DNA of 10,498 bases, from the IMG/VR virus record IMGVR_UViG_3300001567_000141, one strand, 5' to 3'. How positions within the stretch are numbered: the first letter of the stretch is position 1; the number at the start of each line of letters is the position of its first letter. This document shows positions 1,439 to 4,000 of the stretch, one piece after another. The notes under the pieces were generated by a model. That model was given only the letters and a program-made list of their open reading frames with translations, had not been told where the DNA came from and searched no databases. The position numbers were made by a program, and so were the translations under genes. Source of the DNA: a virus (taxonomy: Duplodnaviria; Heunggongvirae; Uroviricota; Caudoviricetes).

Positions 1439-2191
1439 TTATCTCGTCACCTTCCTCAATTGCGCTTCCGCGTATGCTTCTTCCTGCCAGCACTTTGTTA
1501 CCAGTTTACCAATGACGTCCGCATACCCCTTATACCACTGATAATCGGTCAGGTCTGGTACCAGCTTCTGGACATGACGTCGTGCCAGCGTGGTCGGTAA
1601 ACGACTAAACCGGTTTCCATTACAACGCCCACAAATCTTATATACCGGTACGCCATGAAACCGGGTTCTTTTTTCATCCAGAACAATCCCTTTACCCTTA
1701 CACCCTCTGCACGCTGTGCTGGCTTCGCCCTTACCATGGCAATGCTGACATAGTTCCTTCACCCATTCTTCCTTGATTACAGATTCCCCGCGTCTGTAGT
1801 GTTTCACCACTTCGCGCAATACATTATAAAATCCCGTACCTGAACAATGCTCACAGCGAGCCTTACTTGCCGCAGACCTGGAGTAATCAGCAAAGGCAAA
1901 ACTCACGAGGTAAGGAATAATCTGTAACCGGATTTCTTCACTCAATTTGTTCAATGTCGGGTTATCCAGTGCCATCGCGTAATTTAGCAGGCCTTCAATC
2001 GCAAACTGAGGGTCCTGAACACCAACTTTTGCCAGAAATAAGGCCAACCCAAGTGGTGCTTTCGACTGCACCATCCCCTGCGCTGCCATTACATCCGTAA
2101 TTGTTAAACAACCGGTGCCTGTCGCTGGAGCGTCATCGCTCAATTTTGGAGATTTTGGGGAGTAATATTTTGGTAAGGCTTCAAGGTTCAT
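1439..2191 (-). CDS. quuQ: Q-family late-gene antiterminator (250 aa)
   Basis: Track ORF 1439..2221 starts at TTG; the in-frame ATG at 2189-2191 (MNLEALPKYY...) with GTGGAG upstream gives 250 aa; several CxxC pairs (CEHCSGTG, CQHCHGKG, CRGCKGKG, CGRCNG) typical of phage-82-type Q zinc fingers. Confidence 0.85.
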   Translation of the reverse strand: MNLEALPKYYSPKSPKLSDDAPATGTGCLTITDVMAAQGMVQSKAPLGLALFLAKVGVQDPQFAIEGLLNYAMALDNPTLNKLSEEIRLQIIPYLVSFAFADYSRSAASKARCEHCSGTGFYNVLREVVKHYRRGESVIKEEWVKELCQHCHGKGEASTACRGCKGKGIVLDEKRTRFHGVPVYKICGRCNGNRFSRLPTTLARRHVQKLVPDLTDYQWYKGYADVIGKLVTKCWQEEAYAEAQLRKVTR

Positions 2192-2204
2192 GCTCGTTCT
2201 CCAC

Positions 2205-3254
2205 TTACGCCAGTACGCCAATTGCCAGCGCGCGATCGATAAAACGAAATATCAGCTCCAGTTGGGAGCCATACTTATCTTCAAATGCCACTGTATCCGT
2301 ATGCAGCTCGTTGTGATGCTTTCTGCACAAAGGCAACACAAAGAGATCATGTGCTTTTGTTCCCATTCCGCCCTGCCCGTGACCAATCAGATGATGCGGA
2401 TCGTCGGCTGGCATACCGCAGCAAGCACACGGCTGTGTCTTAACCCAACGTGTGTATTTCTCCTTAACCCAGCGGCGACGTTTAGGCAGCTTCATGAAAG
2501 ATTCCGGAGACTCTGGATCAACGGTGATGCTTACCACCGTCTTTTCCTGTGGTGATTTTTGTTGCTGGTGGGCGTAAGGCAACGGTGCAAGATTTTTTGT
2601 GCGTTGTTTCAATATGCTGGTGGCGGTCTGCTCTCCCGGTACGATGTCGCTTTCGCGGTACACCGAGCAGATTTTTTCCGCTGGTAATCCCAGCGAACGA
2701 CGCGATACAGCCTCAGGTAGTGCATCCACCACCTGATTGCAGACCGCCCACCAGGATAATTCAGCCAAAGATAATTCCCGCTCCTGCGTACCGCTTATTG
2801 CGTGACGGATGACGTCAATCACCCATGCTGTCAGATTTTGTTGAGCAAGCAGCTCCAGTGATTCCGATGTCTGGTCACGCAGTTGGTTGTCGCAGTGCCA
2901 GCACAACACCATTGCGCCGGTACCATAACGGTGAATGACTGTTTCAGTGTGATGGTAATCGCCATTAGGCCACTGGCAGGATGTAACATGACGTAATAGC
3001 CAGTCGGACAATGCGCCAACGCCGCCAGCAGCACGAATCACCCGTTCGTTACTAAAAAACGGCAGCAATGTTTTGTCTTCCGCCAGCGGCTGGCGAACGG
3101 CAGGAACGACTCCGGATGGCAGATTACGCATGCTTTTTGGTTCCGGTTCCACCAGCACTCGAGGATTATGAAATATCTGTATGGATTCACGGCCCGGCTT
3201 AAGGACCACCAGCCCAAGCTCAGGCACCAGAACAGGTCTAAGTAATACCCGCAC
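2205..3254 (-). CDS. ydfU: Qin prophage protein YdfU (349 aa from GTG), two HNH-like motifs
   Basis: Track ORF 2205..3293 begins at GTG 3293; the in-frame GTG at 3252-3254 has GGAGG 4 nt upstream and sits 1 nt after the stop of the upstream ORF; stop TAA 2205-2207 lies 14 nt before the quuQ ATG. Motifs DYHH...GTG...LCWHCDN and DDPHH...GQGG...LCRKHHNELH seen in the translation. Exact start uncertain (alternatives GTG 3293, ATG 3131). Confidence 0.8.
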   Translation of the reverse strand: MRVLLRPVLVPELGLVVLKPGRESIQIFHNPRVLVEPEPKSMRNLPSGVVPAVRQPLAEDKTLLPFFSNERVIRAAGGVGALSDWLLRHVTSCQWPNGDYHHTETVIHRYGTGAMVLCWHCDNQLRDQTSESLELLAQQNLTAWVIDVIRHAISGTQERELSLAELSWWAVCNQVVDALPEAVSRRSLGLPAEKICSVYRESDIVPGEQTATSILKQRTKNLAPLPYAHQQQKSPQEKTVVSITVDPESPESFMKLPKRRRWVKEKYTRWVKTQPCACCGMPADDPHHLIGHGQGGMGTKAHDLFVLPLCRKHHNELHTDTVAFEDKYGSQLELIFRFIDRALAIGVLA

Positions 3255-3255
3255 G

Positions 3256-3534
3256 TTACCTCCAGATCCGTTGCTGGAAAGTGCGGGACGCACGTGGTGG
3301 GCGTTCGGAATAAGGCAGCCTGACAGAGATTATCCAGTGCCGATAGTCGAGACTGAGAGCTTTCTTAACCTCGAACCCGCGCCTGCGGTAAGAATGAATC
3401 AGCCATTCGGCCTGTTCTGCAGTGCATGGAGGGTGCTGGAACCATTCAGACTTGAATGCGTGAGAATACCGCCCGTGCGTGCAGGCAAGAACGGGCGAAT
3501 TATCAGAATTGTAATATTTTGCGTTGCGTGCCAT
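3256..3534 (-). CDS. Hypothetical 92-aa protein with a Cys/His-containing N-terminus
   Basis: ORF 3256..3534; ATG at 3532-3534 preceded by GGAG about 8 nt upstream; product MARNAKYYNSDNSPVLACTHGRYSHAFKSEWFQHPPCTAEQ...; stop abuts the ydfU GTG start. Name not recognised; may correspond to a shorter small-protein annotation. Confidence 0.5.
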   Translation of the reverse strand: MARNAKYYNSDNSPVLACTHGRYSHAFKSEWFQHPPCTAEQAEWLIHSYRRRGFEVKKALSLDYRHWIISVRLPYSERPPRASRTFQQRIWR

Positions 3535-3600
3535 CGGTTTTCTCCGGTGGCACGGTGTTACTCAGCGGGAGTTCAGCCCCGCGCAAGATTGTAGATGAGT

Positions 3601-3852
3601 TTATTCTCCTGAAAAAGCAGAAAAGCCAGCTTTTATTCCGATCTCTTTCAATGCCTGTAATGAAGTGACAAACTCACCTTCGCGCAAGATAAATCCGTCC
3701 GTGACCCGAGCATCCACAAAATTAATTAACGCAGCCCCATTCTTTCGCAAACACATAATGCGGTAATGACTAACAAGATTTCCATTTTCAACGCACACAG
3801 CATAGAGGCCATCTTCACAAAAAATTTTACGCAGTTCTTCGATGTTCATCAT
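3601..3852 (-). CDS. rem: Qin prophage protein Rem (83 aa), function unknown
   Basis: ORF 3601..3852; tandem ATG ATG start with GGAAGGA about 5 nt upstream; length and position between ydfU and hokD match rem. Confidence 0.8.
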   Translation of the reverse strand: MMNIEELRKIFCEDGLYAVCVENGNLVSHYRIMCLRKNGAALINFVDARVTDGFILREGEFVTSLQALKEIGIKAGFSAFSGE

Positions 3853-3930: not shown

Positions 3931-3960
3931 ATTCTATTCCGGCACCGTCCAGAACTTCAA
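3931..3960 (-). promoter_or_regulatory. Candidate sigma70 promoter for rem
   Basis: On - strand TTGAAG (+ coords 3955..3960) -N18- TAGAAT (3931..3936), immediately downstream of the relBE-hokD terminator and about 80 nt upstream of the rem ATG. Confidence 0.4.
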
Positions 3961-3964
3961 ACGC

Positions 3965-4000
3965 GTTGAAAATAAAAACAAAAACCCGCCGAAGCGGGTT
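3965..4000 (-). terminator. Intrinsic terminator of the relB-relE-hokD transcript
   Basis: Hairpin AACCCGC-TTCG-GCGGGTT (+ coords 3983..4000) followed on - strand by TTTTTGTTTTTATTTT; no T tract on the + side, so unidirectional. Confidence 0.65.

Follow-up and report, generated by a model that had tools for sequence, protein, structure and literature searches.

Gene organization at the locus

The window, i.e. the whole stretch of DNA analysed here (10,498 nucleotides), corresponds to the segment from cspB to insD of Qin, a cryptic lambdoid prophage of Escherichia coli K-12; window positions equal NC_000913.3 positions minus 1641050. The genes relB, relE, hokD, rem, an open reading frame (ORF) of 92 codons, ydfU and quuQ (ydfT) follow one another in this order on the minus strand (Table 1). 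An in-frame TGA is located nine codons before the ATG of the 92-codon ORF, and since no further ATG, GTG or TTG is found between this TGA and the core of the encoded protein, this ATG is the sole possible start. The start codon with its GGAG Shine-Dalgarno (SD) sequence and the extent of the ORF were found, both in the sequence and in the ORF list, as given in a preliminary description of the window, which had also correctly placed a single nucleotide between the stop of the ORF and the GTG of ydfU. For the second gene pair of the chain, the SD of quuQ was located between ydfU and quuQ as described, while the gap is 13 nt (gtggagaacgagc) and not 14 nt.

Table 1. Features of the region around the 92-codon ORF.
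Feature	Window position	MG1655 position (NC_000913.3)	Strand	Description
92-codon ORF	3256..3534	1644306-1644584	-	CDS including the TAA stop; start ATG 3534-3532, stop TAA 3258-3256; read from the sequence and the ORF list
N-terminal extension, codons 1-26	3457..3534		-	Escherichia-specific, predicted to be disordered (pLDDT <50), dN/dS 0.78; contains Cys18, His20 and His25, which are not conserved
Family core, codons 27-92	3259..3456		-	Predicted basic beta-alpha-beta-beta domain with C-terminal basic tail/helix ending in conserved Trp91
SD of the 92-codon ORF	3542..3545		-	GGAG, 7-nt spacer to the ATG
Initiation hairpin	3527..3554		-	CGUGCCA-C-CGG-AGAAAA-CCG-A-UGGCACG; 10 bp, predicted -15.7 kcal/mol
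Stop/start junction	3252..3263		-	GGAGG (3263-3259, SD of ydfU), TAA, C (3255), GTG of ydfU
ydfU	2205..3254	1643255-1644304	-	Downstream gene of the DUF968 His-Me-finger (HNH) nuclease family (Pfam DUF968, E=1.4e-76; annotation; PMC5714182); annotated start GTG 3254-3252, stop 2207-2205
ydfU-quuQ spacer	2192..2204		-	13 nt, contains the SD of quuQ (GGAG)
quuQ (ydfT)	1439..2191		-	Antitermination protein Q homolog, end of the chain; start ATG 2191-2189
rem	3601-3852	1644651-1644902	-	PHROG 340 (unknown function); no Pfam family
Antisense 137-aa mechanical ORF	3181..3594		+	Covers the whole gene in a codon-aligned frame

The GGAGG that serves as SD of ydfU also encodes Trp91-Arg92 of the small protein. 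As TGG AGG TAA carries the SD of the nuclease gene, ribosomes terminating on the ORF would be positioned to reinitiate on ydfU. The junction TGGAGGTAAcGTG was unchanged across all long-form homologs (those carrying the N-terminal extension of the K-12 protein), which bears out the tight chain proposed for the three genes; the coupling of the ORF to ydfU and quuQ is real, and it is typical of nin regions. A programmed +1 frameshift joining the ORF to YdfU was considered and rejected, the sequence AGG-TAA-C having no slippery or re-pairing site. Ordinary termination-reinitiation is preferred, since the conserved GGAGG-N4-GTG fits it, although the frame of ydfU is open upstream as far as a GTG at 3293 (minus strand). 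A start at that codon would give a protein of 362 aa and an overlap of 38 nt with the small gene; both annotations start ydfU at GTG 3254, which is preceded by the conserved GGAGG.

A clear intrinsic terminator (AACCCGCTTCGGCGGGTT followed by a T-run; 3983-4000, minus strand) is located downstream of hokD and parts the relBE-hokD unit from rem and the following genes. Sigma-70-like promoter matches (9/12 each) are present on the minus strand at 3588-3615, overlapping the end of rem shortly before the ORF, and at 3931-3960, upstream of rem. The number of such matches is within the expectation from shuffled sequences, so they may be due to chance.

Translation initiation region

The ribosome binding site of the ORF had been described as strong. 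Its SD is only 4 nt long, and the calculated duplex with the 3' end of 16S rRNA is weaker than that of the ydfU SD (-6.6 kcal/mol for the 4-nt core versus -10.6 kcal/mol). Moreover, part of the SD and the AUG are located in the predicted initiation hairpin, in which the first two G of the SD are paired, as are the U and G of the start codon and codons 2 and 3, so that the description as a strong site does not hold. The 101-nt context of the hairpin folds with z=-3.7, and none of 200 shuffled sequences was predicted to be as stable. In a second clade of homologs, CAGAGA is found in place of GGAG and the upstream sequence is otherwise unrelated, with the hairpin being retained. Changes on both sides were observed at three of the hairpin pairs (C-G to U-A; U-A to C-G, with a U-G intermediate; G-C to A-U). 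Pairing was found in 95.7% of the cells of this comparison, against 14-37% with the partners slid, and the covariation score was reached by 1 of 500 shuffles, with only seven distinct sequences from two to three lineages available and the structure having been derived from one of them. The sequence comparison thus provides moderate evidence for a conserved hairpin. At the junction of the ORF with ydfU, the predicted RNA structure (z=-1.14) was no better than that of shuffled sequences. A second hairpin (ACUCA...GCGGGG-CUGAAC-UCCCGC-UGAGU) without a U-tract is located in the spacer between rem and the ORF (3555-3600, minus strand) and occurs in the rem-containing clade only.

Conservation of the reading frame

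The window contains 81 mechanical ORFs with a length of 40 aa or more, and some spurious ones are longer than the 92-codon ORF. Its length by itself is thus not above chance, and its reality rests on conservation. The ORF was extracted from 82 long-form loci, which yielded 40 unique sequences. All 40 are open from the same ATG, and the sole change in length is an indel of 6 nt. Pairwise Nei-Gojobori estimates over the long-form homologs resulted in a dN/dS of 0.20 for the whole gene, with a pronounced difference between codons 27-92 (0.097) and codons 2-26 (0.78). Four of the five control frames gave values between 1.27 and 1.67. The fifth, an antisense frame in which the third positions coincide with the wobble positions of the sense frame, gave 0.29, as expected. 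The antisense ORF of 137 aa was rejected as a real gene; its dN/dS is 1.48, stop codons break it in 25 of the 40 unique homologs, and it was classified as a shadow ORF. Lack of a conserved frame in related prophages would, according to the preliminary description, have spoken against the ORF; the frame is kept in all 40 unique homologs, and the core is under strong constraint. Judged by this pattern of selection, the 92-codon ORF is a genuine, conserved protein-coding phage gene.

Protein family, architecture and predicted structure

Residues 27-92 of the protein match PHROG 1212 over the entire profile (positions 1-66 of 66; E=1.7e-35, 121.9 bits). PHROG 1212 is a family of unknown function comprising about 500 proteins of temperate phages of Enterobacterales, and each of the 506 relatives retrieved in a profile search is designated 'hypothetical'. 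An exhaustive HMM search of 1.84 billion (1.84e9) representatives at 50% identity resulted in 104 matches, nearly all of them stand-alone proteins of approximately 66 aa. The few longer matches are chimeras with neighbouring genes caused by frameshifts or deletions, or repeat-protein noise, so that no informative domain fusion was obtained from these representatives. No Pfam family, including the Nin families (NinE, NinF, NinX, NinH and others), was matched at E<=1, and no NCBIfam family was matched.

When phage genomes were searched with tblastn, full-length relatives were found in Escherichia phages, while matches restricted to residues ~26-92 (30-48% identity) were obtained in Gifsy-2, mEp237, SPN3UB, phiES15 and PY54, and also in phages of Klebsiella, Edwardsiella, Hafnia, Erwinia and Pantoea. 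In these short-form phages, the gene has 66 to 69 codons. The core is recognisable across genera at 30-50% identity, and the residues shared with distant members are W31, T/S38, A42, L45, Y49, G53, D63, L73-P74 and W91 (alignments A1, A3 and A4). The 66-residue core would be the functional unit. The short forms start at about residue 25-27, and loss of this ancestral start may have shifted initiation to the nearest in-frame ATG further upstream, with the leader of 26 residues being recruited in this way.

In the AlphaFold2 model, calculated with an alignment of 45 sequences, residues 1-25 are disordered (pLDDT <50), while residues 28-75 are predicted with a pLDDT of about 90 and form three strands (28-33, 55-60 and 67-75) and a helix (39-52). 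A C-terminal helix (84-91) is predicted less confidently. A model of the core only agrees with that of the full-length protein. One family member of Salmonella enterica (P0121, 96 aa) carries an internal tandem duplication of approximately 28 residues that spans strand 1 and helix 1. The best match of the core-only model in a Foldseek search against the PDB had E=0.26, and the weak matches were recurrently R3H, RRM and KH-type domains. An assignment as R3H domain was rejected (Foldseek E>=0.26; the R-x3-H motif is absent from alignment A4). A search of the PDB by sequence profile yielded noise only (E>=0.012), and the sole significant viral match in BFVD was Orf QD1 of phage N15 (E=6.6e-4), itself an uncharacterised homolog for which a literature search gave nothing relevant. 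With the PADLOC models of anti-phage defence systems, no match at E<=0.01 was obtained for the ORF, YdfU or Rem.

The core carries a net charge of +7 and the full protein one of +9 (pI 10.2). From this basic character and the weak structural matches to R3H, RRM and KH-type domains, binding of nucleic acids may reasonably be assumed. The most likely role of the protein, assigned with low confidence, would be that of a small nucleic-acid-binding accessory of the phage recombination/junction-nuclease module. The family is narrow and uncharacterised and has a fixed place beside the recombination nucleases of temperate enterobacterial phages.

Genomic context and the neighbouring nuclease

The context of the gene was recorded for approximately 260 loci, taken from phage records and from contigs of viral origin. 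The downstream gene encodes DUF968/YdfU (84 loci), NinG (80), RusA (58) or YbcO (19); in rare cases, NinX, a phosphatase or Q is encoded instead. YdfU and YbcO belong to one His-Me-finger group (PMC5714182). The next gene on the same strand starts between -25 and +2 nt from the stop in nearly all loci. Upstream, DUF1367 (82) and Rem (68) are the most frequent neighbours, NinB and others being found less often. The position of the gene is thus fixed, directly ahead of the nin-region junction-nuclease gene, which is itself interchangeable. The point directly after the stop of the small gene (loci L005, L006 and L008, and short-form loci) is an exchange site of NinG, RusA, YbcO and DUF968 modules and looks like a mosaic boundary. 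In the short forms, a terminal TGG-GGG-TGA acts as SD of the next gene, as TGG-AGG-TAA does in the K-12 ORF. Since Trp91 is also kept in PY54, with a distance of 48 nt to the next gene, it is a feature of the protein too.

The protein could also be a dedicated partner of the adjacent nuclease, either as specificity or targeting subunit or as inhibitor or immunity factor, and be produced in stoichiometric amounts via translational coupling. This is in line with a DNA nuclease being encoded next, within -25 to +2 nt, in about 93% of the loci, and with DUF968 accompanying the long form in 84 of 84 cases. However, four unrelated nuclease families follow the gene, which makes a single specific protein-protein partnership unlikely; DUF968, NinG, RusA and YbcO are structurally unrelated, which argues against one common interface. 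Furthermore, nuclease inhibitors are typically acidic, in contrast to this strongly basic protein, the 1.84e9 representatives contained no natural fusion, and a profile comparison gave no sequence relation to YdfU. The pattern of the four neighbouring families agrees equally well with the gene order common to nin regions and with a specific partnership, and a dedicated partner is considered rather improbable.

Rho-dependent termination and expression in K-12

On the mRNA strand, the ORF forms a stretch with more C than G (C 28-35%, G 18-27%) between the G-rich rem and the start of ydfU. A terminator upstream of ydfU has been listed among the strongest Rho-dependent terminators in vivo (PMC9160355), and ydfU, in contrast to rem, is up-regulated in Rho and NusG mutants (supplement of PMC9160355). 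The C-rich, G-poor RNA of the ORF (~3290-3570, minus strand) is located in the region of this reported terminator (PMC9160355). Strong Rho-dependent termination in the stretch implies poor ribosome coverage of the ORF in laboratory K-12, where the gene is probably close to silent. Taken together, the hairpin, the C>G stretch and the Rho zone suggest that the ORF is poorly translated in K-12 and acts as a Rho entry region by which ydfU and quuQ are silenced. The gene would be transcribed together with rem, ydfU and quuQ, and silencing would be brought about by sequestration of SD and AUG in the hairpin, with the C-rich, G-poor RNA of the ORF being situated in the Rho zone. In addition to the function of its product, the gene may influence Rho polarity in cis, upstream of Q.

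Alternatively, the ORF could be mainly a cis-acting leader. Its translation, and not its product, would then shield a C-rich rut region and feed the ydfU start, thereby gating ydfU and the late-gene antiterminator Q. The invariant stop/SD/start junction is consistent with this, as are the bubble of C over G above the ORF, the Rho-dependent zone reported upstream of ydfU and the start-codon hairpin, which could make translation conditional. A pure leader would, however, require neither the strong purifying selection on the amino acids of the core (dN/dS 0.10) nor their 30-50% identity across genera, and the same family precedes unrelated downstream genes. A leader as the main role of the ORF is thus unlikely, while such a role may well exist besides that of the protein.

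According to a further reading, the hairpin-restricted translation would be a built-in timing gate for the late genes, and the product would in addition assist the interchangeable junction nucleases as a basic protein that binds nucleic acids. With the hairpin closed, ribosomes would be kept off the C-rich ORF and Rho would terminate transcription before ydfU and quuQ. Opening of the hairpin, e.g. by antiterminated or coupled transcription at induction, would allow translation to shield the rut region and, via the TGGAGGTAAcGTG junction, to drive the synthesis of YdfU and then of Q. As a whole, this combination is speculative and we regard it as doubtful. If true, a large group of lambdoid prophages of E. 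coli, among them those silencing cryptic prophage genes, would have a control point ahead of Q that has not been described before.

Annotation status

The preliminary description had considered that the ORF may be unannotated. This applies to the curated MG1655 reference only, in which no feature is present between ydfU and rem (NC_000913.3). Elsewhere the ORF is annotated: in a W3110 assembly, PGAP places a hypothetical protein (WP_012304870.1) on exactly the 92-codon ORF, and the identical protein has the UniProt entry A0A094VVT9, "Prophage protein". The alternative that it is annotated only as a shorter small protein proved incorrect, since PGAP uses the same ATG and the full length. In diverged prophages, equivalent ORFs of 90-92 aa are called by PGAP. 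The identical protein is found in NCBI/UniProt on at least 1000 contigs, and a DNA match is present in 4313 of 5426 complete E. coli genomes, with up to seven copies per genome. The small gene is thus already catalogued as a hypothetical protein and omitted from the curated MG1655 annotation. Literature searches by coordinates or accession gave irrelevant matches only, and the PIRT-Seq tables have no entry for the locus.

The curated reference of the best-studied bacterium consequently lacks a conserved 92-codon gene that is called automatically in thousands of E. coli genomes, and because of this gap, studies based on MG1655 treat the stretch as an intergenic leader. An example is the very strong Rho-dependent terminator mapped "upstream of ydfU" (PMC9160355), for which the stretch was taken as non-coding.

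The omission could also have been deliberate, if the ORF were a chance ORF or a decayed remnant in the intergenic leader between rem and ydfU and had been left out by the MG1655 curators for that reason. Besides the missing feature in NC_000913.3, the absence from the PIRT-Seq tables, the longer spurious ORFs in the window and the position inside the Rho termination zone could be taken in this sense. Against it stand the frame, unbroken in every homolog, the core dN/dS of 0.10 compared to >1.2 in control frames, homologs in phages of Salmonella, Klebsiella, Cronobacter, Yersinia, Edwardsiella, Hafnia, Erwinia and Pantoea, the confident fold prediction and the identity of the K-12 copy to those on at least 1000 contigs. 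On the evidence of the selection analysis, this explanation is already contradicted, and it is considered very improbable.

Relation to Rem and proposed metal binding

In two phage GenBank records, ON470583 (vB_EcoS-689R5, L009:2501-2779) and ON470612, the gene product is labelled 'toxin to Rem', and rem is located directly upstream in 68 loci. A toxin forming a toxin-antitoxin pair with Rem is nevertheless highly implausible: these 68 loci are part of ~260 family loci, so that co-occurrence is not obligate, and the majority of the family, among them every short form and nine long-form loci, are without a rem neighbour. A literature search for 'toxin to Rem' gave nothing relevant, the protein had no match in PADLOC and no relation to Rem in a profile comparison, and the sole library match of Rem itself, the SocB toxin (E=0.0099, 14.9 bits versus a cut-off of 210 bits), is noise. 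In ten short-form loci (e.g. L104), an unrelated ORF of 81 aa occupies the upstream position of rem at a similar distance.

The idea that made the finding attractive was a small Cys/His (zinc) metal-binding module at the N-terminus. The string quoted for it, ACTHGRYSHAFKSEWFQHPPCT, does correspond to residues 17-38, and the K-12 sequence contains C18, H20, H25, H34 and C37, of which H34 and C37 do not vary within a closer subset of 45 sequences. No four-ligand site is conserved, however. Position 18 is occupied by C, H, S or I within the Escherichia homologs, and residues 1-26 have no counterpart in the 66-aa homologs of other genera, are disordered in the model and evolve in a nearly neutral way. 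Across divergent members of the family, position 37 is C, M, V, L, A or I and position 34 is H, Q, Y or L, and no Pfam zinc-finger family matches. The pattern at position 37 has the signature of a buried hydrophobic position before a helix N-cap (Thr/Ser38), to judge from the alignments, and not that of a ligand. The proposal is unsupported and already contradicted by the comparison of homologs; a zinc module is hardly credible.

Comparison with known systems

With moderate confidence, the 92-codon ORF is regarded as a genuine gene of the nin (delayed-early) region of Qin, which encodes a PHROG 1212 core, would serve as accessory of the nuclease module and is probably nearly silent in K-12. 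Another small gene of Qin, which entered the K-12 annotation after the original gene set, is ynfU (b4776), encoding a 56-aa 'putative zinc-binding protein'. YnfU differs from the protein described here in that its gene (MG1655 1640805-1640975) is located outside the window and on the opposite strand; the ORF studied is not ynfU, and its product has no conserved zinc ligands.

In lambda and P22, NinD, NinE, NinF, NinX, NinY and NinZ are encoded by short ORFs between ninB and ninG or rusA in the delayed-early operon, with overlapping stop and start codons. According to the known gene order of lambda and the phage loci compared here, these small Nin proteins are positional analogues of the 92-codon ORF without sequence relation to it; NinF-type proteins carry CxxC pairs, whereas the PHROG 1212 family has no conserved Cys pairs. 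Small R3H, Jag-N and RRM-like domains that bind single-stranded nucleic acids were also considered for comparison.

The closest counterparts are Orf QD1 of N15, STM1021.1n of Gifsy-2, gp51 of mEp237, ORF47 of PY54 and gp17 of phiES15, all of unknown function, which are homologous over the 66-aa core and occupy the same slot, immediately before the nuclease gene of the nin region, with Q further downstream. The form found in Escherichia, including K-12, differs from these relatives by the additional 26-residue N-terminal extension, predicted to be disordered, and by an initiation region of its own with SD and hairpin, while the relatives are coupled to an upstream DUF1367 or NinB gene. In the Escherichia form, the next gene is always the one encoding the long DUF968 nuclease YdfU.
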